Part shown: positions 64-24,562 of the stretch, in pieces
Layout of the letters: every line of letters starts with the position of its first letter
How positions within the stretch are numbered: position 1 is the first letter of the stretch
NCBI GenBank assembly: GCA_023380755.1
Contig: JAMCSD010000006.1
Coordinates: forward strand, 188,735 to 252,734
Direction of reading: 5' to 3'
From: Patescibacteria group bacterium
Lineage (GTDB): Bacteria > Patescibacteriota > Microgenomatia > UBA12405
DNA: 64,000 bases
Program-made: the position numbers and the translations under genes
Notes under the pieces: model-generated
The model's database searches: none
The model's input: the letters and a program-made list of their open reading frames with translations, nothing else
What the model was told of the DNA's origin: nothing

Positions 64-70
64 TGTTAGT

Positions 71-772: not shown

Positions 773-878
773 AAGTATCTATAGTATAAGACCAAGCTTA
801 AAACATCCTGAGAAGGAATGCTATCTGATAGGGTTTTTCCTAGTTGTTATAGGACATCAAGCATTTTAAATTAATTAC

Positions 879-2033: not shown

Positions 2034-2036
2034 ATT

Positions 2037-3899
2037 GTGGACCTTATTTATAGTTTTAAACTTAACCTTGTCATTCTTTTTCTCCTGCTTTTGGCCCTAT
2101 TACTAGCTGTTTTTCCTCCCTCCAAAAGCTTACCCTCGACTTCCCTCTATCTGATCTTCACCGCCATCCTGGCGACTTCTTTGGTTATTTTTGCGGCTGT
2201 GAATTCGTTACTGAAGCATAAGATTACCGTCGACCAATTGGCCTCGATTGCCCTCATTGTCTCTTTTATTCATCAGGAGTGGCTTTCAGTGGCTTTTATC
2301 AACCTGATGATTATTTCCGCCAGAATTTTTGCCATTTATACTGAAACCAAAGCCAAAAATACTATTAAAAGCCTCTTGAAATTAAGGCCGTCTACGGTTA
2401 AGGTTAAACGCTTCGGGGTAGTCGTCAATGTTCCTATCGAGCACCTTAAAGTCGGCGATTTAGTTGTCATCGACTCCGGTGATCGGGTGCCTGTCGATGG
2501 TTTGGTCCTTGCCGGACGGGCTGACCTTGACCAATCATCACTTACCGGTGAATCGCTACCGGTTTTAGTGGATGTTAATCACCACGTTTATAGCTCCACC
2601 CTCTGCCTTTCCGGTTCCCTGCTCGTCCGGGCCGATAAAGTCGGGGCGGATACTACTTTTCAAAAAATTGTTAAATTAGTCGAGTCGGCCCAAGCCAATA
2701 AAGTTCGTTTTCAAACTGTGGCCGAAAAATTTGCCTCCTGGTACATTCTGATTACTCTCGTTTCTTCAGCCGCTATTTATCTTATTTCTCAAAATCTTAA
2801 TCTGGTTCTTGCCTTCTTGCTGGTCACTTGTGCTGACGACATTGCTGTGGCTGTTCCTTTAGCTTATTGGGCGGCGATTGCCAATGCGGCCAAGAAGGGG
2901 ATTATCATCAAAGGTGGCAATTATTTGGAGGCTCTTTCCCAGGCCAAAGTCTTAGTCACCGACAAAACTGGTACTCTCACCCGTGCTCGGCTTAAAGTTA
3001 TTCAAATCACTCCCTTATCCGATAAATTTAATATTGAAAAAATCCTTTATTACGCTGCTAACGCTGAATCGGTTTCCGAGCACCCCATTGCCAAGGCTAT
3101 TATTCGCGACGCTCGTCTGCGCCAAATCCATTATCACGCTCCAGAGAAATTTGAAGAACATCCGGGTGGCGGTATCACTGGTCGCAGTGCGTCTCAATTA
3201 GTGGATATTGGTAGTCCCAAATACCTTCATCAGAGTAAGCACATCGCCCTCGGTCCCAAGGTTAAAATGGAAATTACTAAATGGGAAAAAGTCGGGGCTA
3301 CCACCGTACTTCTAGCTATCAACCACCAGCTAGTTGGTTTAATTGCTCTGGAGGATGAAGTCAAGCCGGAAGTTCCCGCCAGTGTCAAAGAATTAAGCCG
3401 CCTTGGTATTTCCCGTTTCGTTCTCCTTACCGGGGATAATGAATATGCCGCGGCCAATATTGCCCAAAAAACCGGCATCCATGAAGTTTACGCTAATAGT
3501 AAACCCGAGGATAAAGTCCACTTTATTGAACGGAATATCCATACTCCCGCTAAGCTTATTTACGTTGGTGATGGCGTCAATGATGCTGCTTCCTTAGCTG
3601 CGGCCGATGTTAGTTTTGCCATGGGAGCCATTGGTACCGATAGCGCTATCGAATCTGCCGACATTGCCATCATGGATGACAAATTCAGCCACATTGCCTC
3701 GACTATCAAATTAGCCCAATTCACCAAAAGTATTGTGGTTACTGATTTTACGCTTTGGGGTATAGTCAACCTGATCGGCTTATACCTAGCCTTTGCCGGT
3801 TTGATTAATCCTAGTCAAGCTGCCTTTTATAACTTTGTAACCGACTTTTTGCCTCTTTTTAATTCCTTCCGTCTTTTCAACTATTCACTTAAAAAATAG
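2037..3899 (+). CDS. P-type ATPase, P1B-like architecture with a non-canonical TM6 motif
   Basis: TGES (A domain), DKTGTLT (phosphorylation site), GDGVNDA (hinge). There is no N-terminal metal-binding domain. CADD (2829-2840) occupies the position of the CPC/CPx motif. Confidence 0.9.
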   Translation: MDLIYSFKLNLVILFLLLLALLLAVFPPSKSLPSTSLYLIFTAILATSLVIFAAVNSLLKHKITVDQLASIALIVSFIHQEWLSVAFINLMIISARIFAIYTETKAKNTIKSLLKLRPSTVKVKRFGVVVNVPIEHLKVGDLVVIDSGDRVPVDGLVLAGRADLDQSSLTGESLPVLVDVNHHVYSSTLCLSGSLLVRADKVGADTTFQKIVKLVESAQANKVRFQTVAEKFASWYILITLVSSAAIYLISQNLNLVLAFLLVTCADDIAVAVPLAYWAAIANAAKKGIIIKGGNYLEALSQAKVLVTDKTGTLTRARLKVIQITPLSDKFNIEKILYYAANAESVSEHPIAKAIIRDARLRQIHYHAPEKFEEHPGGGITGRSASQLVDIGSPKYLHQSKHIALGPKVKMEITKWEKVGATTVLLAINHQLVGLIALEDEVKPEVPASVKELSRLGISRFVLLTGDNEYAAANIAQKTGIHEVYANSKPEDKVHFIERNIHTPAKLIYVGDGVNDAASLAAADVSFAMGAIGTDSAIESADIAIMDDKFSHIASTIKLAQFTKSIVVTDFTLWGIVNLIGLYLAFAGLINPSQAAFYNFVTDFLPLFNSFRLFNYSLKK

Positions 3900-3919
3900 G
3901 TCGTAGTGTAGAATACGGC

Positions 3920-4975
3920 ATGATTGATCCGAGCGCCTTTGCTTACCACTTGCCGCCTGACTTAATTGCCGTTTCTCCCACCTCCCCGCGCGATCACTGC
4001 CGGCTACTTTGCGTTAACCGCTATACCGGCGAATTAACGCATCACCATTTTTATGAATTAAGCGAATTTCTCACTCCCAACGATGTCCTTGTTTTTAATC
4101 AGACCCGAGTTTTCCCTGCTCGCCTTTTTGGTCGCAAAAATACTGGGGGTCGGGTGGAAATACTGCTCCTCGAAAATCACACTCCCCGTCAGTGGCTGAC
4201 ACTCAGCCGTCCCGGCCTGAAAGCCAATACCGAGCTTAATTTTGATCACGGGCTTCAGGGGCGGGTCGTCAGTGTTGATCGGGACACGGGTGAAGTAGCA
4301 GTTGAATTTAACCAGGATCAGTCAACTCTTTACCAAACCTTAGATCGCATCGGCCATACTCCGATTCCACCCTACATTCATACTCAGGCACCCGAGACTA
4401 AACTTCGCCGTGATTACCAAACTGTTTATGCCCGAGTTTCCGGGTCAGCTGCTGCTCCTACGGCTGGACTGCATTTTACACCTGAGTTAATTAACCGATT
4501 GACCGCTCAGGGTGTTGACATCAAATATCTCACCCTTCATGTCGGTCTGGGCACCTTTAAGCCCTTAGAGACAAAAAATTTAGAGTCTGGTACCCTCCAC
4601 CGGGAATGGTACGATATTTCCCCTGATACCGCCGCAGATATTTTGCAGGCCAAAAAACAAGGCAAAAGAATTATCGCTGTCGGCACGACTACGGTACGCA
4701 CCCTCGAAAGCTTTGCTCGATCAAATAAGCTTACTGGTACCACCGATCTTTTCATTTATCCTCCATACCGTTTCCATCTTGTCGATAGTTTAATTACCAA
4801 CTTTCACCTGCCGGAATCCAGCTTATTAATGCTGGTTACTGCCTTCACCCATGCCCCCAACACTACTACCGCCTTCACCACCTTCCCCGAATCTTTTCTT
4901 GGTCGCGCCTACGAAACTGCTATCCAAGAGCATTACCGCTTTTTTAGTTTTGGCGATGCCATGTGGATTTACTAA
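3920..4975 (+). CDS. queA: S-adenosylmethionine:tRNA ribosyltransferase-isomerase
   Basis: Resembles QueA along its full length: YHLPPDLIA, VFNQTRVFPARL, HTPIPPYI, YQTVYA, AAPTAGLHF, GTTTVRTLES, NFHLPESSLLMLV, YRFFSFGDAM. Confidence 0.95.
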   Translation: MIDPSAFAYHLPPDLIAVSPTSPRDHCRLLCVNRYTGELTHHHFYELSEFLTPNDVLVFNQTRVFPARLFGRKNTGGRVEILLLENHTPRQWLTLSRPGLKANTELNFDHGLQGRVVSVDRDTGEVAVEFNQDQSTLYQTLDRIGHTPIPPYIHTQAPETKLRRDYQTVYARVSGSAAAPTAGLHFTPELINRLTAQGVDIKYLTLHVGLGTFKPLETKNLESGTLHREWYDISPDTAADILQAKKQGKRIIAVGTTTVRTLESFARSNKLTGTTDLFIYPPYRFHLVDSLITNFHLPESSLLMLVTAFTHAPNTTTAFTTFPESFLGRAYETAIQEHYRFFSFGDAMWIY

Positions 4976-5735
4976 CCCACTCTTTGTATATCCTTTCAAT
5001 TTTTTTGGCTGTTTCTTTAGGATCTTCTAGCCGAAGACTGTTGACCGATAATGGTGGGGAAAAATGAATGGTGATTAGGCCAAAGAAGCGCCCAATTAAT
5101 GGGATCATTTTAAAATAATCCCAATCTGAGGCTCCATCAATATAGGCCATTATTACCTTGGCGTTACTTTTAGATTGTATCTGGTTTACCAAATAACCCA
5201 CCCCCGAAAACCACTTGCCATTTTTCCGACCGGCGCTGGGGTACATCACCACCAGCTCCCCCCGACTGACTTTTTCTGCCGCTGACCTAATACTCTCAAT
5301 ATTCTTTTTGTGAGCAACTTCTTGGCTAAAACTAACATTGGCATGAATTTGCCTGAATAGCCAACCCTTATATTGCCCTCGATTATCCTCACCTTCATCG
5401 TGGTGGTGCACGTAAACAGGGATTAAATGTTTATCCCAATGCGGCAGGATTTTTAAAAAACTCGAATCGATCACCATATTAATATCCGGTCGATCGTTGA
5501 TGCCGGCGATTAAAGTCACCACATCCGATTCTCCGGGGTGGTTCGATAATAACAATACCGGCGATTCGCTTAAGGCTTTATCCACTTCGGCCGTCTTTCC
5601 TTTTACTACCAGGGGTGCGCCGGTCCTGTTGACCAGAGCCACCATCGCTTGCTGTAAACCCACTTTCTCAATTTTATGATCTAACCTTCCTCCCAAACGT
5701 CTTAGCAACCCCCAGCGTTGTAGCGACAATTCCAT
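4944..5735 (-). CDS. Lysophospholipid/glycerol-phosphate acyltransferase-like protein (PlsC superfamily)
   Basis: HX4D motif NHPGESD, and YPSAGRK in the position of the FPEGTR block. Its 3' end overlaps the queA 3' end by 32 nt (convergent). Confidence 0.6.
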   Translation of the reverse strand: MELSLQRWGLLRRLGGRLDHKIEKVGLQQAMVALVNRTGAPLVVKGKTAEVDKALSESPVLLLSNHPGESDVVTLIAGINDRPDINMVIDSSFLKILPHWDKHLIPVYVHHHDEGEDNRGQYKGWLFRQIHANVSFSQEVAHKKNIESIRSAAEKVSRGELVVMYPSAGRKNGKWFSGVGYLVNQIQSKSNAKVIMAYIDGASDWDYFKMIPLIGRFFGLITIHFSPPLSVNSLRLEDPKETAKKIERIYKEWVSKSTWHRQN

Positions 5736-5819
5736 ATAACCTTCATTGTAACAACTGCCTGACCGTTTTCCTAGCCACCTTTATAGATAAATAAAATTAA
5801 TGGTAGCTGTGCAGTTTTT

Positions 5820-5828
5820 TGTTATAAT
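5820..5828 (+). promoter_or_regulatory. Extended -10 element (TGtTATAAT) 6 nt upstream of the ATG at 5835; candidate leaderless promoter
   Basis: TG at 5820-5821, TATAAT at 5823-5828, ATG at 5835. No Shine-Dalgarno sequence lies between them. Confidence 0.5.
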
Positions 5829-5834
5829 TAACGC

Positions 5835-7643
5835 ATGCCTCCCATTCTCAAGATTATTACTTATACCCGTCGTTTTTGGCTCTGGTATCTACTGATGGCC
5901 ATTTTCGTCATCGCCGTTTCTCTGTTATCACTCGCCTCACCGTTGTTTAGTAAGCAAATAGTGGATTTGATTGTTAGCAAAGTAATCGGTACAGGTGCTA
6001 ATACCCAAAAATTGTTTTGGCTGCTGGGAGCTATCATCGCCGTGGACCTCCTTAGTTCCCTGCTCACCGCTATCGGCCAACAGATCGGTGACATTGTTTC
6101 AGTTCGTCTGCAATCATATCTCTCTTCCACCTTCTATCAGCACATCCTGGGATTACATGTTGGTTATTACGATAACGAAATTACCGGCAAAATTATTAAT
6201 AAAATGTACCGTGGCATTACCAGTATCTCCGAGTTTATCCAAGATGCTTTTAATAATTTTCTCCCCTTCTTCCTGACTGCTCTGGTTACTATTATCCTTT
6301 TAGCTCATTACTCACTTTTTATCAGCCTTCTACTCTTCATTCTTTTTCCGGTCTACATTTTAATCTCCCGCCAATCTTCCGTCGCTTGGGAAAAACACGA
6401 GGCTCAAAAAAATCAACGCAACGACCTTTCCCAGGGCCGGGTTTTTGAAAGTCTCACCGGCATTCGCATTGTCAAGTCCTTCGTCGCCGAAGTCCGAGAG
6501 CTCCAACAATTTATCTCTACCCGAAAGGAAATTGAAACTATCAGTGTCCGCCAGACTCGCGATTGGCACATTATCGATTTTCTCCGACGCGTCTTTTTAA
6601 ACCTCATTCTTTTTGCCATTTACGCTTATGTCGTCTTTTGGACCTTCAATGGGCACTTTACCATTGGTGAAATGACCTTACTTATCCAGTTAGTCAATCA
6701 GGCCCGTTTTCCTCTTTTTGCTATGTCCTTTATTTTAGGTCAAATCCAGCAGGCTAACGCTGGTTCGGCTGATTTTTTCAAAGTCTTGGAAATCGAGCCG
6801 CAAGTCCAAGACCTGCCCAACGCTTCCGTGCTCAAGATCAAACCATCCCCAAAGCCGGTCATTGAGTTTTCCCATGTCACTTTTGGTTATGACCCGCCAG
6901 AACCCGTCTTAAATGATATTTCGTTTGCACTTCACTCCGGGCAGCAATTAGCCTTGGTGGCCGAATCAGGGCAGGGGAAATCTACTATCGTTAACTTATT
7001 ATTACGCTATTACGAGCCGCAAGCTGGGGACATTTTTATAAATGGCCAAAACATCCAAAAAGTCACTCAAACCTCACTCCACCGAAATATCTCTGTAGTA
7101 TTCCAGGAGTCATTGCTCTTTTCTGGCACCATTCGTGAAAATATTGCTTACGGCCGACCGGGAGCTAGCCTTCAGGATATCGAAACTGCTGCCAAGGCCG
7201 CCAATGCTCATGATTTTATTATGAAACTTCCCCAACAATATAACAGTTTAGTCGGAGAGCGGGGAGTCAAATTATCCGGCGGTCAAAAACAGCGCATCGC
7301 TATCGCCCGAGCGATTCTCAAAGACGCTCCGATTGTTATCTTAGATGAAGCTACTTCTTCTCTGGACAGCCGGGCCGAGCTCCAGGTACAAAAGGGCTTA
7401 AATGAATTGATGAAAAATAAAACCTCCATTGTTATTGCCCACCGCCTCTCCACCATTGCTAACGCTGATTTAGTCCTGGCCATTGAAGAAGGCCGTATCA
7501 CTCAATTTGGTCCGCCGCGCCGTCTTTTAAAAAACCCCAACGGCTTATACGCCAAATTGATTAAACTTCAACGGCACCTTTTACGGGCGCCGGCCAATCC
7601 CAAAATCAGCCGCGAATTACAACAGTTTGATATTGTGGGGTAA
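5835..7643 (+). CDS. ABC exporter, fused permease/ATPase (MsbA-like type I exporter)
   Basis: N-terminal six-TM region, then Walker A ESGQGKST, signature LSGGQKQRIAIARA and Walker B VILDEATSSLD. Confidence 0.9.
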   Translation: MPPILKIITYTRRFWLWYLLMAIFVIAVSLLSLASPLFSKQIVDLIVSKVIGTGANTQKLFWLLGAIIAVDLLSSLLTAIGQQIGDIVSVRLQSYLSSTFYQHILGLHVGYYDNEITGKIINKMYRGITSISEFIQDAFNNFLPFFLTALVTIILLAHYSLFISLLLFILFPVYILISRQSSVAWEKHEAQKNQRNDLSQGRVFESLTGIRIVKSFVAEVRELQQFISTRKEIETISVRQTRDWHIIDFLRRVFLNLILFAIYAYVVFWTFNGHFTIGEMTLLIQLVNQARFPLFAMSFILGQIQQANAGSADFFKVLEIEPQVQDLPNASVLKIKPSPKPVIEFSHVTFGYDPPEPVLNDISFALHSGQQLALVAESGQGKSTIVNLLLRYYEPQAGDIFINGQNIQKVTQTSLHRNISVVFQESLLFSGTIRENIAYGRPGASLQDIETAAKAANAHDFIMKLPQQYNSLVGERGVKLSGGQKQRIAIARAILKDAPIVILDEATSSLDSRAELQVQKGLNELMKNKTSIVIAHRLSTIANADLVLAIEEGRITQFGPPRRLLKNPNGLYAKLIKLQRHLLRAPANPKISRELQQFDIVG

Positions 7644-8399
7644 TTATTCCGCCACATACCGGCTTACGCCCTCCCGGGCAAACACATTTGGCAGATCAGC
7701 AAACAGGTCAACTGGCATGAACGTTCTTAGTTTTACAAATTCCCAAAATCGGCTCTCCGCAGCCCAAGTTGAGCTATATGACTCCAGAGCCCGAAGCAGC
7801 CATTGGTCACTATTACCATAAGGCATCGCTTCTTTGGCACTCTCATAATCAGCCGCCAGTTTATCGGCAGCCCAAACCGCCTCCTTATAATCGTCAGTTT
7901 GGCTACCATGATTTTTACGGAATCTCTGCCCCGGTAATTGGGCCAAATCTTCAAAACCCGCTGCCGCCCGCTCTACCGCCTCATCACTAAAAAACCAGTA
8001 ACTTCTTTGAAAACCTCCCCGGTAATACCACCCCTCCATCCGTGAGTCGCCGCTTTCGTGTTCGTGTACTAGCCATAGTACCAGATACCAGTCCGGATGC
8101 CCCACATGATTGGCGGCGGTCACATAAATCGGTAAATAAATTTCCAGGTCCTGCTTCAGTTGGTCGTTGGTAAAGTTCTTAAACCCCCCTAAAACATATG
8201 GGTGTTTGTCAATAATTGGCACCAATACCTGGTGGTACCGGTTCCTGATTTCTTGGATATAAGACTTAAAATCTTCTTGAGTGGTGGCTGCCTCAACTAT
8301 TCTTGGTTGCGCTTCCCGGGGCGCAAAGGGGGACCCGGCATTCAGGGCTATGGTTAAGGAAAAAGCGGCGGCTAATTTGCTTAATTTTTTTCTCTCCAA
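7644..8399 (-). CDS. Secreted hypothetical protein
   Basis: TTG start and an N-terminal signal-like segment KLAAAFSLTIALNAG. The stretch HEHESGDS weakly recalls the lytic transglycosylase ES motif, which is not enough for a call. Confidence 0.55.
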   Translation of the reverse strand: MERKKLSKLAAAFSLTIALNAGSPFAPREAQPRIVEAATTQEDFKSYIQEIRNRYHQVLVPIIDKHPYVLGGFKNFTNDQLKQDLEIYLPIYVTAANHVGHPDWYLVLWLVHEHESGDSRMEGWYYRGGFQRSYWFFSDEAVERAAAGFEDLAQLPGQRFRKNHGSQTDDYKEAVWAADKLAADYESAKEAMPYGNSDQWLLRALESYSSTWAAESRFWEFVKLRTFMPVDLFADLPNVFAREGVSRYVAE

Positions 8400-8461
8400 C
8401 TAATACAAAATATATATTAGTTACCATGTTAGCATGATTTCGCCAATTAAACTGTGAAATT

Positions 8462-9574
8462 TTACACTGTTTTATTTGCGGTCGGCAGCATTTTCTTCAT
8501 AATAAAGGCATCCAACGTATATGGTGCCAGGATATATATCGATTCAAAAGCTAATACCGAAAGATCGTGTGAGGAAGGCATTTGGTGGGTCAACCAATAA
8601 GCAAAAATTGCCAAGAAAAAGGCATTTCTTAATGATACTCTCATTTGGACTTTCATGGCCTTGGCAATCATTTCTTTTTCCACTCCTCTCTTTTGCGCCT
8701 CCTCAGCCGCTTCTCGGTTATGCTTGTAACCCAAATAGATGGTCGCCAAAAAGGTGGCGACTGCCGTCACGATGTTAAAAGTCGTATTCTGCCGTGACAA
8801 ATCAGCCGTTAGCCACAAAAAACTAAATCCCACTGGGATATGTCTCAAAAAATAAGCCGAAGCAATCAGCAACACCCCTGCAATTCCTCCTAAGCCCATC
8901 AAAATTTTGTTGTAAGCAATCCGCACACTTAACACCTGTTTATTTTTCCACAGCAGTCTCCGCAATACTCGCCATAAGATCCTTAAAACCACCATTAATC
9001 CAATAATCAGAAGCCAAATCGCCAAAATCCGGGACCACGGTAAAGCTGTCGTCTTAGTTATCTTCAGAAACGGGAAGTAAAAAGTTGTCCCCTGCAAGGG
9101 GTAATCAGGATAGGGAATAAAATTATACAGATAGTGGGTGCTAATTTTCTCATAATAGAAATCAAGTAAAAACACCCTTCCGGCCGACACAAAAGCAATC
9201 GCCACCAACACGAAATTTAAAATATAAACTAATACTGAAGCGTCTCCCTCCCGCATCCTCTTTTTTACTAATAAGCCTTGTTCTTCGTTTTTCGTCTTTT
9301 CCAGGGCTTCCTCAAAATCCTTAAAATCTGGTAATAACTTTTCCCCTATCATCCGCAACGGTAAAAAGGCAATATTTTGAATTAGGCTCACCAAAATTAT
9401 CGACAGCCACACTACATGGGTGGCAAAATACAACCCAAAAAACATACTGGCATACAACTTAAAACTCCCGCCTCGAATAAACCAATACCCGATTAAAAGT
9501 AATATTCCGACAATAACGAAGGTGATTCTGGGCATCGAACGGGTATTGTCAATCTTCCGAATTTGTGAGATCAC
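8462..9574 (-). CDS. Multi-pass membrane protein, function unknown (a distant YidC/Oxa1-like layout is possible)
   Basis: 370 aa with about 6-8 hydrophobic helices and an amphipathic charged loop after the LIQNIAFLPLR helix. I saw no canonical YidC motif. Confidence 0.5.
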   Translation of the reverse strand: MISQIRKIDNTRSMPRITFVIVGILLLIGYWFIRGGSFKLYASMFFGLYFATHVVWLSIILVSLIQNIAFLPLRMIGEKLLPDFKDFEEALEKTKNEEQGLLVKKRMREGDASVLVYILNFVLVAIAFVSAGRVFLLDFYYEKISTHYLYNFIPYPDYPLQGTTFYFPFLKITKTTALPWSRILAIWLLIIGLMVVLRILWRVLRRLLWKNKQVLSVRIAYNKILMGLGGIAGVLLIASAYFLRHIPVGFSFLWLTADLSRQNTTFNIVTAVATFLATIYLGYKHNREAAEEAQKRGVEKEMIAKAMKVQMRVSLRNAFFLAIFAYWLTHQMPSSHDLSVLAFESIYILAPYTLDAFIMKKMLPTANKTV

Positions 9575-9692
9575 GCCTTATTATACAAATCTCCGCCGCC
9601 TTTTTTAAAATCTAACTATTTTAGAATTGACAGAATAGCCAGAATACTGATTTTATAGGGTAAATTATGCTACAATTATATTAAGCTAACCT

Positions 9693-10913
9693 ATGAAAAT
9701 TGCCCTAAAATGTTTTATCCTTATTTTCGCTGGATTTATTGCTTATAATCTTCTAAAATTGCCTTTCAATGTTTCTGCCGACATCTCCAGCTATACTGCC
9801 AGTGAGTTCTCGCGATATTGTGAAGACAAAGTCAATCATTCTATTTGTAATAAAGTTGAAAGTCCTAGTGATCAGATAATTGTCACCTGTCCTGCCGAAA
9901 GTCAATCAATTTCCGAGGTTTATGTTCATGCCGGTGACGGTCAGACCCTTTATCAGCTGCCCGATAGTCAGTTTGAAGCTGCCTATAGTAATACCCACAA
10001 CGCTGTTACCGTTAAGGTCACTGAAGGTCAACATAATTTGAGTTATGTTGGGGTTATTTGCGGCGTTCCGGTGACTAACACCCCGACTGTCGGTCAGCTG
10101 CCGACTAATACCCCAATTGCCACTAGCACCCCCGAGGCGACCAACACTCCCCAACCAACCAGCACACCCAGAGCAGACAATACTCCCACACCAACCGTCG
10201 AAATTAGTTCTCCAACCCCCACCGAAGTCAATAGCCAGCCGACTGCCACCCCGACTCCCACTAACGCCCCATCTAATAACGATGGCAACAATAGTAACAA
10301 TAACAACAACAATAATAATTCTTCTGACAACAACAGTTCCAACAATCCTCCCGCTCCCACCGCTACTCCAGTTCCCGCCGCCGGGATCGGTGGTGGTAAT
10401 GCCGCCAACGACAACAATAACCCCATCATTGCTGGCCTCGAAGCTTCCCAGGGAGAAGTCTTGGGAGAGAGTACCCAGCTTCCCTACACTGGTACCAGTG
10501 ACGCCAGCCCGGAAAAACTGCCTTCTAATAACCTTCGCCAAATCGGTCTTTCCTTAGCTATTCCCAAACTCTCTTTTCTCGCCCCGATTTATCAGGCCGT
10601 CGAGCTTGGTGATCAGTACCTTGTTGGGGATAAGGAAGTTCTCGAGAAAGAGGTTAATGGCGCCTATTTCCTTTATGGCCACAACAGCCCCGATGTCTTT
10701 GGGCGGCTTAATCATTTAACGGTTGGCGATACCTTAGTCCGGAGTGCCTTTGGCCAAGAAGTCACCTATCGGGTGACGGGCATTCGCTGGGTTTCCCAAT
10801 ATAATCAAGAAGTTTTAAGTCACTTAGTTCCCGGCTCCCTGGTTCTTGTCAGTTGTGACCCCAATAATTTGTCCTTAAGGATTGTTATTAATGCTGTCCC
10901 TACCAATGAATAG
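9693..10913 (+). CDS. Surface protein fused to a C-terminal sortase domain (signal/TM, Cys-containing domain, PT-rich linker, poly-Asn, LPYTG, sortase)
   Basis: Sortase signature in order: LAIPKL, LYGHN (His), LTVGDTL, LVLVSCDP (Cys), LRIV (Arg). An internal LPYTG lies at 10479-10493. Confidence 0.75.
   Translation: MKIALKCFILIFAGFIAYNLLKLPFNVSADISSYTASEFSRYCEDKVNHSICNKVESPSDQIIVTCPAESQSISEVYVHAGDGQTLYQLPDSQFEAAYSNTHNAVTVKVTEGQHNLSYVGVICGVPVTNTPTVGQLPTNTPIATSTPEATNTPQPTSTPRADNTPTPTVEISSPTPTEVNSQPTATPTPTNAPSNNDGNNSNNNNNNNNSSDNNSSNNPPAPTATPVPAAGIGGGNAANDNNNPIIAGLEASQGEVLGESTQLPYTGTSDASPEKLPSNNLRQIGLSLAIPKLSFLAPIYQAVELGDQYLVGDKEVLEKEVNGAYFLYGHNSPDVFGRLNHLTVGDTLVRSAFGQEVTYRVTGIRWVSQYNQEVLSHLVPGSLVLVSCDPNNLSLRIVINAVPTNE
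10078..10347 (+). repeat. Low-complexity Pro/Thr-rich linker followed by an AAC/AAT (poly-Asn) tract
   Basis: Reiterated TNTP/TPTP codons at 10078-10270. The NNDGNNSNNNNNNNSSDNNSSNN tract is encoded at about 10272-10347. Confidence 0.85.
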
Positions 10914-11439
10914 GTTCTTGAAATTAGCTATTATTTTAATTATTTTAGGAATTGCCGGGTTCGGCTGGTACCGTTTTAACCGCGAATCTTTGCAAAAGCT
11001 TTCGTCCACCTCAGCCCCCACTCCTACCACCATCTTAGCTCCGGCTTTTCCTTTAGGCTGGACCGAGGCTCCCGTCCAAAATGATCAGGTCGCCAAGCTC
11101 ATCAAAGAAACCAAGACTGGATTTCAGCCCACTATTGTGGCCATCAAAAACGATTACTCCGGAACCGATCCGCAAAAATATACCGATAAGCTCCTAAAAG
11201 GAGCCCGGTCTGCTTTTCCCACTCTTCGGGTTACCAGCGATTCGGTTGATAATACGGGCCCGATTTTTACCCGGACTTTTACTGGTTATTACTTTCTTAA
11301 AGGCAGCAAGATTTACTTTAAGCAGACCTTACTGATAAAAGATAACCGCTTAGTTACCATTACGGCGTCTTCTTCGGCCGATGATTTTGAGGCTGCCTTT
11401 GCTATCCTGGTTGACCGCCAACTTCTAGCTCTAGAATAA
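10906..11439 (+). CDS. Membrane-anchored hypothetical protein
   Basis: ATG at 10906 overlaps the upstream stop (ATGAATAG). There is an N-terminal TM segment LKLAIILIILGIAGFGWY. I preferred this start to the track start at 10882. Confidence 0.6.
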   Translation: MNRFLKLAIILIILGIAGFGWYRFNRESLQKLSSTSAPTPTTILAPAFPLGWTEAPVQNDQVAKLIKETKTGFQPTIVAIKNDYSGTDPQKYTDKLLKGARSAFPTLRVTSDSVDNTGPIFTRTFTGYYFLKGSKIYFKQTLLIKDNRLVTITASSSADDFEAAFAILVDRQLLALE

Positions 11440-11567
11440 CCATTAAAAACTTCGGGAACATCGTCCATATCTGAAATCCCTAAAAACGTGGGGCAAATAC
11501 CATTTTGACCCATATTGTAATTTATTTCAATGAGTATCTTTTTTTGTCAGAAGCGGTAAATTTGGTC

Positions 11568-11849
11568 ATGTCACTACATGAAGGCGTCACCATCATCACT
11601 CAAGATTATGTTTCCAAAAAAGGGTTCAATAACAACAAGCGGCTTGAAGAAGACCCGCTAGTACCAACCCCGACTGATTTAGCTACTAAAGAAGGGCTGG
11701 ATCGGGGATCAGGTTCCACCAAAGGGATTCCGATGCATGGTGGTGAACTAATTGTCCCTAACTCTCGTTACCGGGAAATTGAAGCTATTCTTCGCGCTCG
11801 CCCGGTATACGCTTTGACCTATGAGTCCCGCCTCCGGGATAGTGATTAG
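11568..11849 (+). CDS. Hypothetical small protein (uncertain)
   Basis: In-frame ATG at 11568, preceded by TAAATT 5 nt upstream, which fits the leaderless pattern seen elsewhere in the window. No recognisable motif. Its 3' end overlaps the minus-strand ORF 11748-11993. Confidence 0.3.
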   Translation: MSLHEGVTIITQDYVSKKGFNNNKRLEEDPLVPTPTDLATKEGLDRGSGSTKGIPMHGGELIVPNSRYREIEAILRARPVYALTYESRLRDSD

Positions 11850-11993
11850 AACCGTAAAAATCCCAGAGTTATGAGGCCTGTAGCGATTAAATATATCCCC
11901 ACCAAGACGCTTAATAGTTTCGGATTTACTAGGATAAGAAATCCAAAAATAATCGACAGAATGGGGTTGATATTTCGTAAAATCATAATTCAT
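11748..11993 (-). CDS. Hypothetical small protein (uncertain)
   Basis: 81-aa ORF with an AGAGG Shine-Dalgarno-like sequence 8 nt upstream of its ATG. No recognisable motif. It conflicts with the 3' end of 11568-11849. Confidence 0.25.
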   Translation of the reverse strand: MNYDFTKYQPHSVDYFWISYPSKSETIKRLGGDIFNRYRPHNSGIFTVLITIPEAGLIGQSVYRASAKNSFNFPVTRVRDN

Positions 11994-12335
11994 TATAACA
12001 ACCTCTTGACACCTTGTTAACCGTGCGTTTTACTGAGGTGTCTTCACAATAAAAACCGCCTCTAACGCCGGGGGCAAATAAAAAATAAAATGGCTAAATT
12101 TGTACAAAAGCTCGATTTGTTGGTTTCCACTGCGGGCTTTTTTTAGTTTCCTAAACGGGCGGTAACACCGCGTTATCTTTCCGTTTTGCCCTTTAACAAG
12201 TTGAAGGTTAAACTACTTGGTTTAGCAAGGTAGCGGAGTCGGGGCAGGCTACTCCGCTGCTTTGCTAACCAGGGATAGCATATTAGGCAGTTCGCCATCG
12301 TCTGTAGGAATTGTTGTTTTTACTGGAGGTTAGTC
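11994..12335 (+). promoter_or_regulatory. Long structured 5' leader of the ECF operon (candidate cis-regulatory RNA, class unknown)
   Basis: 342-nt non-coding gap. Possible promoter TTGACA (12006-12011), 17-nt spacer, TTTACT. Stems: GACACCT/AGGTGTC; AAACGG-GCGGT-aac-ACCGC-...-CCGTTT; and an uninterrupted 18-bp helix at 12222-12268. GGAGG Shine-Dalgarno sequence before the GTG at 12336. Confidence 0.4.
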
Positions 12336-13046
12336 GTGCTTAACTACTTGAATCAGTTGCTTGCTGGTATTAGTGCTGATCCGGTCGAGTTGGTCTTTTT
12401 AGTGCTGGCGCTAGTTATGGCCGGCGTGTTGCTCTATCAAAATCGTTCTCGGCTACGCCTGACTGATGGCAAAAACGAGGTTGATGGAGTTTACGGCTTA
12501 GTCGGTGGTGCCGTGTTGGGTGCTCTGACCGGTGTCCTCTGGGCTTATTTGAACCCGATTCAACTGGCCCCCGGGATTCACCTGCGTCTGTTTGCCATGC
12601 TGCCCTGCATCTTCGGGATAGTTTTTGGCCGCGGCACCGGTTTCGTCAGTGGTTATGTGGCTACCATTGTATGGGGTGTATTGTCGAACCTCTTCTTGCC
12701 GTTCCATACCCCCTTAGTCGATGGTGTTTTTGTTGGTTTGACAGGCTGGATCCCGGCTATGTTGCTGCGTGGAAATGATAACAATGAAACCCTCTTAAAC
12801 ACCATTCTCCAAAACCCTCGTCAGTGGTATATCCGGGCGGGTTTAGTCAGTCTCTTCGCTGGTTTGTTCATGTCGGTCTTTGTCGGTATCTCGCTTAATG
12901 CCACTATCCAACTGCCATTCTGGACGGGCTTTGGCTTGATTGGCATCGTCTCGGATACCCCCATGATGGTCCTTTTCACCGGAGTCGGAGCTCTCTGGCT
13001 GCTCAAGGCCACCCGTCGCCAGTGGAAAGTGATGCACGCCTTTTAA
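12336..13046 (+). CDS. Putative ECF-transporter substrate-capture (S) component
   Basis: 236-aa protein with about 6 TM helices, GTG start and a GGAGG Shine-Dalgarno sequence. It lies directly upstream of the EcfT-like and duplicated EcfA-like genes. The role is assigned from context and topology only. Confidence 0.6.
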   Translation: MLNYLNQLLAGISADPVELVFLVLALVMAGVLLYQNRSRLRLTDGKNEVDGVYGLVGGAVLGALTGVLWAYLNPIQLAPGIHLRLFAMLPCIFGIVFGRGTGFVSGYVATIVWGVLSNLFLPFHTPLVDGVFVGLTGWIPAMLLRGNDNNETLLNTILQNPRQWYIRAGLVSLFAGLFMSVFVGISLNATIQLPFWTGFGLIGIVSDTPMMVLFTGVGALWLLKATRRQWKVMHAF

Positions 13047-13054
13047 GGCCCATA

Positions 13055-13088
13055 AGTAAGATTGGATTACCTGGAATCCAATCTTACT
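13055..13088 (+). other. Perfect intercistronic stem-loop between the S and T genes
   Basis: GTAAGATTGGATT (13056-13068), loop ACCTGG, AATCCAATCTTAC (13075-13087), plus one flanking A-T pair. No U-tract follows. Confidence 0.8.
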
Positions 13089-13108
13089 CCTCGTTGTCTG
13101 GAGGTGAT

Positions 13109-13846
13109 ATGCCCTCTAAACCCTTTTTCGAACGTCTCGACCCTCGGGTTAGGATCATCTGGATGTTTCTTCTATCGGCTCTCACCTTGCATTTTATGGA
13201 GCCTTTACCGCTTCTTTTGGTCGTGCTCTCGATCATCCCCGTGTGGCTGCTGGCCCGCCGTTTCCTGATGCTAGTTTCCAAAGTCACCCCCAAGGCTATC
13301 GCTTTTATGCTTTTCTTGGCCGTGACCCAGTCGATCTCCCAGTTGATCATGACTCACACTGTTAATCCGAATGTCCTGGCCATTCAAATGGAGCGGGTAT
13401 ACGTGATGGTCACCGCCTCCGTTCTTCTTTTTCAGACCACAAACTATAGCCAAATCACAGCCGCCATTCGCAGTCTTAAGCCCCGAAATCCTGAAAGTAA
13501 ATTAGCACCTTTTATCGAATCAGCAGCTTTTACTGTTGGAATTGCCTTCCAAATGATTCCGACTATCTTGACGGAAATCGCTACCATGGCTCAGGTCCGC
13601 CGGGCTCGTGGTGAGGCGATCACTGAAGGTAAAGCTCTAGAACGGGCTAAAAAGTCACTCCGTCTCGGTATGCCGTTAGTCAACCGCATGATCGATGTCA
13701 TCAAAAATATCAACCTGGCTTTAACTAATTATGCTTACTCCAACCGTCGTCGTCGCACCCAATTTCGGATTATCCGCTTTTCCCTGATGGACTATGCTGC
13801 TTTGTTGGTGGTTTTTGCTGCGGCACTTGCCTTTTTATTTGTTTAA
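13109..13846 (+). CDS. ecfT: ECF transporter transmembrane (T) component, CbiQ/EcfT family
   Basis: ATG at 13109 preceded by GGAGGTGAT. The start MPSKPFFERLDPRVRIIW is typical of the family, and the conserved coupling region reads AQVRRARGE. I preferred this start to the track start at 13022. Confidence 0.85.
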   Translation: MPSKPFFERLDPRVRIIWMFLLSALTLHFMEPLPLLLVVLSIIPVWLLARRFLMLVSKVTPKAIAFMLFLAVTQSISQLIMTHTVNPNVLAIQMERVYVMVTASVLLFQTTNYSQITAAIRSLKPRNPESKLAPFIESAAFTVGIAFQMIPTILTEIATMAQVRRARGEAITEGKALERAKKSLRLGMPLVNRMIDVIKNINLALTNYAYSNRRRRTQFRIIRFSLMDYAALLVVFAAALAFLFV

Positions 13847-13857
13847 CCTTCACTTTC

Positions 13858-13891
13858 TCCTGGAGGGATTGCCCTCACACTCCCTCCAGGA
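13858..13891 (+). other. Intercistronic stem-loop between the T and ATPase genes
   Basis: CCTGGAGGGA (13859-13868) and TCCCTCCAGG (13881-13890), a 10-bp perfect stem plus one flanking pair, with a 12-nt loop and no U-tract. Confidence 0.75.
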
Positions 13892-13916
13892 AATTTCCTT
13901 AAAAATATAAACTATT

Positions 13917-15404
13917 ATGTCCACTCCAGAAGAAATATTTCGCCTAAATGCCTTATCTTATCAATACGATCAGACCAATTCTCCGGCTCTCAGAGACGTT
14001 AATTGTCATATTCAAGCTGGTGAAGCAGTCGGTATCATCGGCGAAAGCGGCGGTGGTAAAACTACCGCTCTCAATCTTCTCTCCGGGATAATTCCCCACA
14101 TGGTCCAAGATGGCAAGTATGAAGGCGAAGCCCTATTTCGGGGAGCCAGTATCCAACACTTGTCCATTTACGACCTTATGCGTCACGTCAAAATTGTTTT
14201 TCAGGACGCCTCTACCCAAAATTTTGGTTTAAATGTTGATGACGCCTTAGCCTTTGGTATGGAAAATATTGCTCTATCACCAAAAGAAATCGAGTATCGG
14301 ATTAAAAAAATTGCTGATGAACTCAATATTACTCATCTTCGGGCTAAAAACACCCAGCAATTATCCGGTGGCGAACGTCAAAGAGTTGCCATCGCTTCCG
14401 CCTTAGCCATGGACCCTGAAGTTTTATTACTCGACGAAGCAATTTCCGCTCTCGATACGGGCGGCCAAATGGACGTCAGGCAAATTGTGGAGCAACAGCG
14501 CGCCTCTGGCAAAACCATGGTTTTAGTTGATTCCGATGTCCGCTGGCTAGCAAAGACCGTTGATCGGGTCCTGGTCCTTCAGAGCGGTCAGCTGATTTAT
14601 GATGGCCCACCCCAGGTAATTTTTCAGCGAGCCGATTTAGCCGAAGCTGCCGGCCTCGAAAACCACTCTGGCGAAATCCAGTTCCGGGAACCATTTACCG
14701 GCTCTCCCGTTGTTCAGCTGTCCCATATTTCTTTTGCCTATTCCAAAGATACCCCCGTCCTTAAAGACATTTCTTTAAATATTACGGCCGGTTCTTGTGA
14801 AGCTTTAGTTGGTCAAAACGGCTCGGGTAAAACCACTCTGGCAAAAATTATTGCCGGCCTAATTAAGCCGTCGGCCGGTGAAGTTTTTATTAACGGCCAA
14901 GTTCCCTACAATTTGACCTCCCCTCGATTAGTCGAAAACGTCGGTTACGTTTTCCAAAATCCCTCCCAACAGTTTGTCGACGAAACCGTGAAAGAAGAGT
15001 TTTCCCATACCGCCTCGATTCTCAAACGCCCTCCGGCGGTCAGCCTTAAGGATTTTGATTTAGAAAATTATGCTGATAGTTCCCCTTGGGATTTATCTGC
15101 CGGTCAGCAGCAGCGCTTAGCGATCGCCAGCGTCGTTGCTACTAACCCCTCGGTGGTGATTTTTGACGAGCCCACTTTAGGGCAGACGCGGCGGGATCGT
15201 GAAAAATTAGTCGCTACTATCAAAAATCTCCAGCAGCAGGGGACCACTGTGGTGATTATTTCTCATGACCTTAAATTTATTGCCGATGCTGCCCAGCATG
15301 TTCATGTTATTGACCATGGCGAACTGCGGGCTAGTGGCGCTGCTCCGGAAATTCTTCAAGATAAATCCTTATTTAATCATTTAGGTTTACCGCTTCCGTG
15401 GTAA
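13917..15404 (+). CDS. ECF transporter ATPase, fused duplicated A-A' component
   Basis: Two complete ABC cassettes: GESGGGKTT / LSGGERQRVAIASA / LLLDEA, and GQNGSGKTT / LSAGQQQRLAIASV / VIFDEPT. Confidence 0.9.
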   Translation: MSTPEEIFRLNALSYQYDQTNSPALRDVNCHIQAGEAVGIIGESGGGKTTALNLLSGIIPHMVQDGKYEGEALFRGASIQHLSIYDLMRHVKIVFQDASTQNFGLNVDDALAFGMENIALSPKEIEYRIKKIADELNITHLRAKNTQQLSGGERQRVAIASALAMDPEVLLLDEAISALDTGGQMDVRQIVEQQRASGKTMVLVDSDVRWLAKTVDRVLVLQSGQLIYDGPPQVIFQRADLAEAAGLENHSGEIQFREPFTGSPVVQLSHISFAYSKDTPVLKDISLNITAGSCEALVGQNGSGKTTLAKIIAGLIKPSAGEVFINGQVPYNLTSPRLVENVGYVFQNPSQQFVDETVKEEFSHTASILKRPPAVSLKDFDLENYADSSPWDLSAGQQQRLAIASVVATNPSVVIFDEPTLGQTRRDREKLVATIKNLQQQGTTVVIISHDLKFIADAAQHVHVIDHGELRASGAAPEILQDKSLFNHLGLPLPW

Positions 15405-15416
15405 AAAAGGCAGCCA

Positions 15417-16124
15417 ATGTCATCTAAAATCTTAGACCGAAAATATACTACCGCCATTTATGACGGCTATTCTCCATCTACCGAAAACCACCCGAATTTT
15501 TACGCTGTCGAACTACGGACGGTTCGTGGTTCAGTCGCTACCCTGGAATTACCATTTCGGCCGTTGCCGGATCCCGAACAGGCTATTTCTTTGCTGATGA
15601 CCCTTCAATCCCCCCACTCTGTGATTCACCGCTTGTCCATGATGCTCACGGAGCAGGTAACTGATTGGCATCCCGATACCATTATTGGTATTCCGACCCT
15701 TGGTTTCCCCTTGGCCTGGGAGGTTTCCGACCGATTAGGCCTTCCTGATTTTGTCGCCTTAACCAACTCCCTGAAATATTGGCAGGACCAAAGTTTGGTG
15801 ACTATGGTGGAATCAGTCACCAGTGCCCCCAAGCCCATTTGTCTTGATCCTTATCTGGTGGATCGGGTGGCTGGCCGACGGGTGGTAGTCATTGATGACG
15901 TGGCCAATACTGGCATTAGTTTAAAAAAATCTATTGATCTAGTCTCTCGGGCGAAACCGGCTGATGTTAAAGTCGCCTTGGTTTTAACTGAGGGCCACAA
16001 ATGGCAAGGGGAGTTAGAGGAAATTAATTTTCCCTGGCGGACTGATCTAAGAGCTCTGGGGCATATTCCGACCTTCCAAAAAACGTCTCCGGGTTTTTGG
16101 AAGCCCAATCCTTCAACCATATAG
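15417..16124 (+). CDS. Type I phosphoribosyltransferase (APRT-like) with an N-terminal extension
   Basis: PRPP-binding loop VVVIDDVANTGISL. Core IIGIPTLGFPLAWEVS. Confidence 0.8.
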   Translation: MSSKILDRKYTTAIYDGYSPSTENHPNFYAVELRTVRGSVATLELPFRPLPDPEQAISLLMTLQSPHSVIHRLSMMLTEQVTDWHPDTIIGIPTLGFPLAWEVSDRLGLPDFVALTNSLKYWQDQSLVTMVESVTSAPKPICLDPYLVDRVAGRRVVVIDDVANTGISLKKSIDLVSRAKPADVKVALVLTEGHKWQGELEEINFPWRTDLRALGHIPTFQKTSPGFWKPNPSTI

Positions 16125-16137
16125 ATTAATGCCCTAA

Positions 16138-16680
16138 ATGGATTATTATTCGCTCAATTTTTTTGGCCTTAAACGTAATCTACCCATCATTTCTATTGCC
16201 CCCAAAATTAAAATTGCCAGTTTCTCACTTTTAGGTGACGTGGAAATGACTCAAAAATCAGCTGAGGAATTAGCCAAAAGACTGCAGCCGCTCAACTTTG
16301 ATTATTTGGTCGGTCCTGAGGTCAAAGTTGTTCCTCTTCTTTTTGCCTTGTCTCAAGAATTAACTAAAAAACAATTTATTGTTTGCCGCAAAAGTGTCAA
16401 AGGCTACATGATTGCCCCCTTAATTTATAAAACCAAGTTGAAAAACAAAACCTTTATGTTGGTTCTTGACGGCCCCGATGTGGCGCGGATTAAAAACAAG
16501 CGGGTCATCGTGGTTGACGATGTTGTTTCTTCCGGTATCACGGTCAAAAACCTCCAAAAGTTCCTCCTGGCTTCTGGCGTCAATATCGTCGCTGTCGCTT
16601 CCATTTTTAAACAGAGCCCGCAATATCAAGATGAATTAATCTATCTTCAAGAATTGCCAGTTTTCACCAGCTCGTACTAA
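16138..16680 (+). CDS. Type I phosphoribosyltransferase (adenine/purine PRT-like)
   Basis: PRPP-binding loop VIVVDDVVSSGITV. Core YLVGPEVKVVPLLFAL, CRKSVKGY. Confidence 0.8.
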   Translation: MDYYSLNFFGLKRNLPIISIAPKIKIASFSLLGDVEMTQKSAEELAKRLQPLNFDYLVGPEVKVVPLLFALSQELTKKQFIVCRKSVKGYMIAPLIYKTKLKNKTFMLVLDGPDVARIKNKRVIVVDDVVSSGITVKNLQKFLLASGVNIVAVASIFKQSPQYQDELIYLQELPVFTSSY

Positions 16681-16696
16681 AATACTATTATATTCT

Positions 16697-17302
16697 ATGC
16701 TGACGGAAGTCATTTTCGACATCGAAACCAAAAAACTATTTGACGAAATTATCGGGTTTAATCCTGCCGACCTTGGGGTATCCCTTGTTTCTCTTTATAA
16801 ACGTACCTTAAATGAAAACGGCCGGGAAATAAAAGGGGAGATGCTTAGCTTTTGGGATAGTGAATTACCCTCACTATGGGCTCATTTTAGCAACGTTGAT
16901 CGGATTATCGGTTACAATTCCATTCATTTTGACGTTCCCGCTCTGGCGCCTTTATGCCCTTACGACCTCAAGAAAATTCCTCACCTAGACATTATGGATA
17001 AGTTGAAGGAAAAAACCGGATTTCGGGTGGGGTTGAATGCCGTCGCTTCCGAAACCTTAGGGATTACCAAAACCGATAATGGGATCAACGCCGTACTTTA
17101 TTGGCTTGAGCATTCCACCAGCTCTCTTAAAAAACTTAAAGAGTATTGTGAACACGATGTCTTAGTGACCAAAGAAGTTTATGATTACGGCCGAACTCAT
17201 GGCCATTTAAAGTATAAAGATAAATGGAATACTCCCCGTACTATTACAGTCGACTTCTCCTATCCGATGGATCCTCTCAGCCAACAGATGGGCTTATTCT
17301 AA
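16697..17302 (+). CDS. DEDD-type 3'-5' exonuclease (PolB-exonuclease-like, RNase H fold)
   Basis: ExoI FDIET, ExoII NSIHFDVPAL, HLDIMD, ExoIII YCEHDVLVT. Confidence 0.8.
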   Translation: MLTEVIFDIETKKLFDEIIGFNPADLGVSLVSLYKRTLNENGREIKGEMLSFWDSELPSLWAHFSNVDRIIGYNSIHFDVPALAPLCPYDLKKIPHLDIMDKLKEKTGFRVGLNAVASETLGITKTDNGINAVLYWLEHSTSSLKKLKEYCEHDVLVTKEVYDYGRTHGHLKYKDKWNTPRTITVDFSYPMDPLSQQMGLF

Positions 17303-17317
17303 ATAAAACCAATCCGC

Positions 17318-17323
17318 TATAAT
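17318..17323 (+). promoter_or_regulatory. -10 box TATAAT 6 nt upstream of the GTG at 17330; candidate leaderless promoter
   Basis: TATAAT at 17318-17323, then gatatt, then GTG. No Shine-Dalgarno sequence. Confidence 0.4.
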
Positions 17324-17329
17324 GATATT

Positions 17330-18337: not shown

Positions 18338-18355
18338 GCTTTGCTATGCTTAAGC

Positions 18356-19225: not shown

Positions 19226-19228
19226 GGC

Positions 19229-20348: not shown

Positions 20349-20374
20349 AATCCCTCCTTAGCAAATAACTATTA

Positions 20375-20415
20375 ATTGTATTAGCAGTCTAAATCAAAAT
20401 CTGCTAATTTGTCAA
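20375..20415 (-). promoter_or_regulatory. hsp20 promoter region with a CIRCE-like inverted repeat
   Basis: TTAGCAGTC-N9-ATCTGCTAA at 20381-20407, compared with the CIRCE consensus TTAGCACTC-N9-GAGTGCTAA. It is flanked on the minus strand by TTGACA (20410-20415) and TACAAT (20375-20380). Confidence 0.45.
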
Positions 20416-21170: not shown

Positions 21171-21186
21171 AAAAAGAATTGTAATC

Positions 21187-21771: not shown

Positions 21772-21775
21772 AATT

Positions 21776-24445: not shown

Positions 24446-24507
24446 AAACGAAACAACAATCGATAATTTAATTCGTTTTAACTTCAGAGTATTTAAGAAT
24501 TTTTAAT

Positions 24508-24547: not shown

Positions 24548-24562
24548 GAGTTGGTCACTTCA

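Follow-up and report, generated by a model that had tools for sequence, protein, structure and literature searches.

A Microgenomates sortase family with a copy of its clade's sorting signal at the lid position, possibly a self-processing pro-sortase

Within a stretch of 64,000 nucleotides from contig JAMCSD010000006.1 of a Patescibacteria group bacterium (hereafter the window), a gene at 9693..10913 on the forward strand encodes a sortase that carries, in the same chain and ahead of its catalytic domain, the LPXTG-type pentapeptide LPYTG. Our comparison of this protein with its relatives indicates that the pentapeptide is part of a module that reproduces, on a fixed-length tether, the extended cell-wall sorting signal of the clade itself, and that this module is placed where class C sortases have their active-site lid. 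The enzyme probably binds its own chain and perhaps also cuts it. Sortases are textbook enzymes and widely used tools in protein engineering and, to our knowledge, enzyme and sorting signal lie on separate proteins in every described sortase class.

The gene is a single unbroken frame of 406 residues, and its product (hereafter the query) is identical to an NCBI entry, 'sortase [Patescibacteria group bacterium]', deposited from a 381-kb contig. The original prediction described an uninterrupted open reading frame (ORF) with surface-protein cargo, pentapeptide and enzyme in this order, a layout that the frame, the motif position and the domain searches bear out. All of its parts lie on the forward strand. 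A signal-peptide-like hydrophobic segment, delimited by hydrophobicity and alignment, occupies aa 1-29 (9693..9779) and ends with VSA-D. It is followed by a passenger domain (aa 30-126, 9780..10070), which homologues and a structure prediction define as a four-Cys beta-sandwich, and then by a low-complexity stalk whose translation is rich in Pro and Thr (PT-rich) and contains poly-Asn (aa 127-242, 10071..10418). The pre-catalytic module opens with NPIIAGLEA (10419..10445), which aligns with the family helix NYNPL[IV]xGI and forms a helix at residues 5-13 of the AlphaFold2 (AF2) model. Next comes GEVLGESTQLPYTGTSDAS (aa 254-272, 10452..10508), the copy of the extended sorting signal within the chain, which was delimited by alignment and pattern search and includes LPYTG (aa 263-267, 10479-10493, codons ctt ccc tac act ggt) with its putative scissile bond between Thr266 and Gly267. 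In the alignment, a tether of fixed length (10509..10553) with a near-invariant (K)LPS.N, here KLPSNN at 10515-10532, leads from the signal to beta-strand 1. The sortase catalytic domain PF04203, assigned by Pfam, AF2 and Foldseek, covers aa 288-403 (10554..10901), and its triad is encoded at 10680-10682 (His330), 10854-10856 (Cys388) and 10878-10880 (Arg396). The pentapeptide thus stands where it had been placed at first; the sortase domain, expected about 25 residues later, begins by Pfam 20 residues after the end of LPYTG. The sole hydrophobic segment of the query is aa 1-21, and no other was found between LPYTG and the sortase domain or at the C-terminus. ORFs that overlap the sortase gene in other frames or on the opposite strand were discarded as low-complexity artefacts of the PT/Asn-rich stretch.

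The resemblance of the internal motif to genuine sorting signals goes well beyond the pentapeptide. The N-terminal domain of the query recurs in 18 non-sortase proteins found by searching with its full sequence, and in 17 of these the C-terminus is a classical cell-wall sorting signal made up of pentapeptide, hydrophobic segment and basic tail. Eleven of these signals have the form G[QE]VLGA[ST]T-[LMFY]AxTG with small or acidic residues thereafter; one such signal is 'GQVLGASTLANTGTADET...', to which the stretch given above is the counterpart in the query. In the same way, 'GEVLGESTQLPYTGTSD' of the query matches the 'GQVLGA(S/T)TLAxTG(T/S)xxE' that precedes the transmembrane (TM) segment and basic tail of non-sortase homologues. 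The likeness also takes in acidic residues that follow TG and, further upstream, a second VLG repeat; the duplication is found in 37/56 sortases and 10/18 substrates. A strict pattern for the signal, [VI]LG.{2,6}[LMFWYVI][PAM].T[GAS], matches 43/67 sortases, always 137-139 aa from the C-terminus, and 11/18 of the non-sortase proteins with the N-terminal domain, at 29-37 aa from the C-terminus and with TM segment and basic tail following; it has no other match in 796 background ORFs (123,753 aa, 14 loci). To this signal the sortases add the LPSGN tether and the NYNPL helix, which lies between both VLG repeats; they are devoid of its TM segment and basic tail, in whose place the enzyme stands. 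The query has the signal-peptide-like N-terminus and the LPXTG-type pentapeptide in VLG context of a sortase substrate, and after LPYTG it continues with polar residues and 139 further residues of enzyme without TM segment. The NCBIfam LPXTG_anchor model barely detects the signals of this clade (14.3 bits vs 15.9 on P0014).

The module is also a constant of the sortase family. An exhaustive HMMER search with aa 243-406 gave 94 representatives of 50%-identity clusters; in about 60 of them the alignment begins with the first residue of the searched segment, far ahead of the catalytic domain. Separate profile searches yielded 7 sortases and 4 fragments of the N-terminal domain, and the related loci used here comprise 10 genome loci and 4 metagenome loci from the profile search. 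In a MAFFT alignment of 67 family members, the pentapeptide columns were counted on 64. Position 1 is L in 45/64, the remainder being mostly F, M or W; position 2 is P in 40, A in 13 and M in 6; position 3 accepts any residue; position 4 is T in 61/64; and position 5 (P1') is G in 34, A in 24 and S in 4. Such a column profile reads as the specificity profile of a sortase recognition motif. Indeed, the motif columns equal parts of the catalytic core in their degree of conservation, and the residues right after them vary freely. The conservation that the original prediction proposed to look for among orthologues holds for the L-P-x-T core and fails at P1', where Ala or Ser replaces Gly in 28/64 and where the closest orthologue has LPFTA.

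The family module can be written (VLGATD)NYNPL[IV]xGIxxSYGGx[VI]LGx[ST]TxL[P/A]xT[G/A], then about 9 variable residues, then (K)LPSGN and beta-strand 1; the corresponding elements of the query, spaced as in the family, are NPIIAGLE, GEVLGESTQLPYTG and KLPSNN. The distance from the P1 Thr to LPS is 11 aa in 39/61 members, that from LPS to beta-strand 1 is 12-13 aa in 61/61, and the P1 Thr lies 63-64 aa from the catalytic His in 46/61. Constant tether length with variable sequence would be expected of a motif that has to arrive at one particular site on the catalytic domain of the same chain. Moreover, minimal complete members (P0034, 215 aa; P0060, 216 aa) keep the module with almost no passenger, and what the family holds constant is the module and not the cargo. 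Since the family counts about 60 clusters at 50% identity and includes such near-cargo-less members, the gene is not a one-off fusion.

These data bear directly on the idea, raised at the outset, that the pentapeptide arose by chance, or that a frameshift or an assembly join created the fusion. A motif LP.TG is expected 0.01 times in the query and 0.46 times in all window ORFs of at least 150 aa, and it was seen once, in the query; the count by itself would be weak evidence, and it is family-wide conservation that argues chance out, with the motif column maintained in about 60 clusters at 50% identity, the strict pattern and the fixed tether all pointing the same way. The linker is made of low-complexity, error-prone DNA and one relative (locus L004) has an in-frame stop, which might be taken as signs of an artefact. 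Nevertheless, an identical protein has been deposited from a 381-kb contig, and the syntenic orthologue P0002 is one ORF in three contigs from different samples, which rules out an assembly artefact behind the fusion. Apart from L004, and from L016, where a 1.8-kb contig ends within the sortase gene, all other distinct loci show this architecture in one ORF, independent assemblies included, and the split into two ORFs that the original prediction had named as a refutation was not seen in them. Chance and artefact are thus effectively refuted as explanations.

The catalytic part of the protein is a genuine sortase domain. Pfam PF04203 scores 46.1 bits on aa 288-403 (gathering cutoff 26.6), the AF2 model of aa 240-406 is a beta-barrel with a predicted local distance difference test score (pLDDT) above 90, and the top 50 matches in a Foldseek search of the PDB with this model are all sortases (E about 5e-9). 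His330 (LYGHN), Cys388 (LVSCDP) and Arg396 (LRIV), from which a complete sortase domain had been proposed, are in register with the triad of solved sortases and invariant in 66-67 of the 67 aligned relatives. By domain, triad and fold, the query belongs to the sortase superfamily (PF04203, MEROPS C60), and it is predicted to act as a transpeptidase on an LPXTG-type signal. In terms of class, the query scores 31.5 with TIGR01076 sortase_fam, under its cutoff of 39.35, and stays below the cutoffs of the NCBIfam models for class C (20.3 bits vs 160), class D (21.7 vs 165), SrtD (17.5 vs 140) and Marine/GN (17.3 vs 158); none of the class A, B, E and F models was reported for it at E <= 0.1. Compared with the PDB, the family profile gives comparable E-values for structures of classes A, C, D and E, with Bacillus anthracis SrtA as best match (1.5e-14). 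The query fits no curated sortase class. Class C membership was considered and rejected: DP[WFY] is absent from the query, the lid-equivalent loop being L[P/A]xT[G/A], a C-terminal TM segment is missing and the class model is far under its cutoff. The neighbouring genes, which encode an ABC transporter, membrane proteins and a DcrB-like partner, are not a pilin cluster either.

Class C sortases nevertheless share with the query family more than the barrel and the His/Cys/Arg triad (Streptococcus pneumoniae SrtC1 2W1J, group B Streptococcus (GBS) SrtC1 3RBI, Actinomyces oris SrtC 2XWG). They have the same N-terminal helix followed by a loop before beta-strand 1, which in class C covers the groove (PMC3166054), at a similar spacing to the catalytic His, and their structures are among the top Foldseek matches. 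They differ in that their lid is DP(W/F/Y), whereas the query family has at this place a copy of a sorting signal, L[P/A]xT[G/A] with VLG context; moreover, the query has no C-terminal TM segment, lies outside a pilin operon and has a cargo-bearing pre-region and an obligatory DcrB-like partner. In B. anthracis SrtA, an N-terminal appendage folds back onto the active-site His and modulates substrate access. This enzyme (2KW8/2RUI), although it is the best solved-structure match of the family profile, differs from the query in that its appendage is not a copy of a sorting signal and in that the match concerns the catalytic domain only (profile positions 48-161). As to its place in the chain, the extension of the query resembles this appendage as it does the class C lid. 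Khare et al. 2011 swapped the lid of GBS SrtC1 for IPNTG in order to trap a substrate-like complex, and the lid was disordered (PMC3166054). This artificial construct has, like the query, a sorting motif at the lid position in the same chain, and the query family appears to be its natural version with a much longer recognition element.

The region preceding the module is built like a surface protein. The N-terminal domain (aa 30-126) is modelled as a small beta-sandwich with one helix and four invariant Cys (pLDDT 95), and follows the pattern ..F..YC..C.K..SCP..VYVHAGDGQTVYQLP..SWIGVVC. It has no Pfam, NCBIfam or significant PDB match and is common to about 18 non-sortase surface proteins and to the sortases of loci L011 and L001/L010 (P0004, Shapirobacteria), which are about 32-36% identical to the query in the catalytic part. 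With its homologues P0004-P0024, it is an undescribed surface domain of the candidate phyla radiation, found on substrates and sortases alike. The VSA-D of the query aligns at the signal-peptidase-type site AxA-S of the substrate homologues, directly before this domain; the hydrophobic N-terminus is thus probably a signal peptide that is cleaved, and its removal would leave a mature enzyme without TM segment. Canonical substrates and the query have in common the signal peptide, a passenger homologous to that of P0005-P0023, a PT-rich stalk and the extended VLG..LPxTG signal, and the order of N-terminal domain, PT stalk and signal is that of P0005-P0023. In the canonical substrates a hydrophobic segment and a basic tail come next, in contrast to the approximately 20 polar residues and the catalytic domain of the query. 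The proposal that cargo, signal and enzyme share one chain is thereby upheld, since the N-terminal domain and the extended 'VLG..T.L[PA]xTG' signal are both common to true substrates. Other family members have FN3, TSP1 or Cys-rich modules in their pre-regions, and in P0009 and P0013 the order Cys-rich, PT, FN3, signal is the one seen in the substrate P0006. The syntenic orthologue P0002 has the same neighbours as the query and 50% identity in the C-terminal part, together with a different, Cys-studded PT pre-region and LPFTA. This different pre-region, and the domains common to both groups, show that passengers are shuffled between substrates and sortase pre-regions.

A second gene accompanies the sortase. 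At 10906..11439 (+), a protein of 177 aa with an N-terminal TM segment and a DcrB/LpqN/PsbP-like domain, assigned by profile searches and synteny, begins with an ATG that overlaps the sortase stop (ATGAATAG). Ten of 14 partner homologues match PF08786 (best E 3.4e-8), and the partner profile weakly matches LpqN 6E5D. A partner homologue lies directly downstream of the sortase in 16/16 loci with downstream sequence (12 + 4), which come from Shapirobacteria, Microgenomates and other Patescibacteria assemblies, and the two-gene unit is as conserved as the module itself.

We propose that the query is a self-processing pro-sortase. After Sec export, the tethered signal would occupy the enzyme's own substrate groove in cis, and Cys388 would attack the Thr266-Gly267 bond. 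The pre-region, i.e. the four-Cys domain and the PT/Asn stalk laid out like a wall-anchored surface protein, would be transferred to a cell-wall nucleophile. The freed catalytic domain, which has no anchor of its own, would be kept at the membrane by the translationally coupled TM partner with its DcrB/LpqN-like domain, where it might then sort 'VLG...LAxTG' proteins. We give this full mechanism, cleavage included, a probability of roughly 40%. Its steps are not equally secure: cis docking of the tethered signal is rather likely, cleavage and transfer of the pre-region stand at somewhat under even odds, and a role of the partner as membrane anchor of the catalytic domain is a speculative and rather unlikely element. 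It is conceivable, although doubtful, that a single cis transpeptidation both plants the adhesin-like passenger on the cell wall and activates and releases a catalytic domain held by a DcrB/LpqN-fold partner, so that the sortase would be self-anchoring. Several features favor self-processing: the complete signal of 17-20 residues is kept, with Thr in 95% and G/A in 91% of the members, the signal-peptidase site falls, in the alignment, on that of true substrates, and an otherwise unexplained membrane partner is always present. Furthermore, the order of folded domain, PT stalk and signal is topologically sensible only with the signal end attached to the wall. Such a reaction is feasible, as fusions of SrtA with an LPXTG linker and a target protein cleave themselves at the linker (Mao 2004; Matsunaga et al. 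2010, PMC2901362); these artificial purification fusions have the order enzyme-LPXTG-cargo, in contrast to cargo-LPXTG-enzyme in the query. Autotransporters, with passenger and processing or anchoring module in one chain, offer an analogy of logic only, their fold and chemistry being unrelated, and no homology is claimed.

The same module can also be read as a pseudo-substrate lid that is never cut, a reading that we consider nearly as likely as self-processing, for which cleavage itself is a prediction. Like the DP(W/F/Y) lid of class C sortases or the appendage of B. anthracis SrtA, the tethered signal would plug the groove in an autoinhibitory or protective manner until real substrates displace it, and the N-terminal hydrophobic segment would stay as a signal-anchor with the pre-region as a stalk. 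This would be in line with the place of the module in the chain, which is that of the class C lid (helix, loop, beta-strand 1), and with its distance to the catalytic His: in GBS SrtC1, lid residues 44-55 and His 122 are about 70 residues apart, compared with 64-67 in the query family (PMC3166054). It would account for the family-wide conservation without giving up the enzyme's anchor, and for the retention of the module in the cargo-less minimal members. The logic, and this only, is that of pseudo-substrate-regulated kinases, in which a tethered substrate look-alike checks an enzyme of unrelated fold and chemistry. On the other hand, class C lids work without resembling a substrate, and a full signal of 17-20 residues with its Thr and its G/A exceeds what a plug would need. 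An N-terminal anchor would also place the FN3, TSP1 and four-Cys domains by the membrane, under the wall, with the PT stalk leading outward to the enzyme, a topology that is the reverse of that of every known surface protein. In addition, the AxA site aligned with true substrates argues for cleavage of the signal peptide, and a lid leaves the obligatory TM partner unexplained.

The residue at P1' deserves particular attention in this context. It is not Gly in 30/64 relatives (Ala, Ser, Asp or His in 47% of the family) and it is Gly in 17/17 bona fide signals sampled (Fisher 1.4e-4). Replacement at the reactive position is typical of pseudo-substrates, and the relatives thus have the look expected of a non-cleavable mimic; the closest orthologue has its LPFTA together with an identical beta7-beta8 loop. 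The choice of G or A at P1' goes together with Asp or Ser at the beta7-beta8 loop position that follows the catalytic Cys (Fisher 6.5e-6), an association that fits self-processing and lid alike and is confounded by phylogeny. For class A sortases, this loop is reported as a determinant of selectivity (PMC8361268). Mutual information between motif positions and catalytic-domain columns is diffuse and dominated by clade structure.

The P1' data and the phylogenetic confounding of the loop association weigh against self-processing, and further points must be added on that side. AF2 does not place the motif confidently (pLDDT about 46 on VLGEST and about 66 on the LPYTG block), and where Foldseek alignments to class C sortases include the extension, the root-mean-square deviation is 8-9 Å. 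The engineered IPNTG lid of GBS SrtC1 did not bind the groove (PMC3166054). The minimal members P0034 and P0060 (about 200 aa) have no cargo to deliver, and cleavage would part the catalytic domain from the rest of the chain, its rescue by the partner being something that we only infer. Despite this, self-processing remains the reading that we favor over the lid.

The absence of confident docking by AF2 could also mean that the motif does not interact with its own active site at all. In that case, the module might be the substrate of another sortase in trans, with the catalytic domain in place of the TM tail, or a leftover of recombination. Passenger domains and the double-VLG signal have clearly been exchanged between substrates and sortase pre-regions, and the passenger of P0002 differs from that of its syntenic counterpart, as would be expected from such a history. 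We regard this as improbable: a leftover would not keep Thr in 61/64 and a fixed tether across lineages at 30-40% identity, the NYNPL helix and the LPSGN are specific to the sortases and conserved, and the 64-kb window, the extent covered here short of the whole genome, contains no second sortase.

A literature search in PMC (7.7 million papers) and bioRxiv found no natural sortase with an internal sorting signal, a pseudo-substrate or a zymogen form. If the reading is right, a natural family that has the signal at the lid position throughout would represent either the first self-processing pro-sortase or the first lid that mimics a true substrate, and this would surprise sortase specialists. 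Either outcome bears on how lids and N-terminal appendages gate the active sites of sortases, and the family would offer a naturally tethered enzyme-substrate pair, which has been attempted by engineering without success (PMC3166054). Self-anchoring, if true, would mean a zymogen-plus-cargo logic undescribed for any sortase class and widespread in Microgenomates. The surface biology of these bacteria underlies their episymbiotic lifestyle. An extended sorting signal (VLG..LAxTG) and an obligatory partner are now defined for a Microgenomates sortase, an enzyme that is near-ubiquitous in this group (PMC6744442).

The two proteins with variant signals that had been noted in the window, each a candidate substrate in trans, do exist, and each has a hydrophobic tail. 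The product of 40028..41302 (+), secreted and FN3/Big_13-like, ends with VPVTG, a hydrophobic segment and K, and that of 41351..42337 (+), secreted, Cys-rich and PT-rich, ends with LPNAG and a hydrophobic segment without basic tail; VLG context is absent from both. These adjacent PT-rich proteins both end in [VL]Px[TA]GVxxP followed by the hydrophobic segment, which may represent another kind of anchor signal at the C-terminus. Some sortases of the family (P0031, P0034) have LPNAG or LPDAG as their internal motif. Scans of the neighbours in 17 loci, aimed at comparing P1' of substrates with the T-A of resident sortases, identified only three nearby proteins with a C-terminal TM segment, which have ILG..VETA[GK]/LPEKN as signal instead. 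They are large surface proteins near the sortase, at L010 1325..4189 (-), L006 1652..4318 (-) and L004 7717..8703 (+), and end in 'G[TE]ILG..(F)VETA[GK]' or '..LPEKN' with TM segment and basic tail; one has a CLIPPER domain. In these ILG/VLG-prefixed signals, the pentapeptide differs from the internal motif of the resident sortase.

The sortase gene of locus L004 (9203..10501; Patescibacteria UBA1406, DBQA01000006.1), the only interrupted one among the distinct loci, has its in-frame stop right after the signal peptide ('...MLVSAQ*AVCPESG...'), and gene callers consequently begin the protein inside the module (P0042). This stop could be a sequencing error, or the gene could be a pseudogene or truly split. 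In the window, the divergent gene upstream of the sortase, 8462..9574 (-), encodes a multi-pass membrane protein without family assignment; its product is very strongly conserved in the syntenic locus L002 (4480..5775 (-), E 2e-175) and is unlinked to the sortase in more distant loci. Finally, the guanine-cytosine skew is negative in every 2-kb bin of the window 1..64000 (cumulative -4.9), though most long ORFs are on the forward strand; an unusual disparity of strand composition has been reported for a complete Microgenomates genome (PMC7143001).

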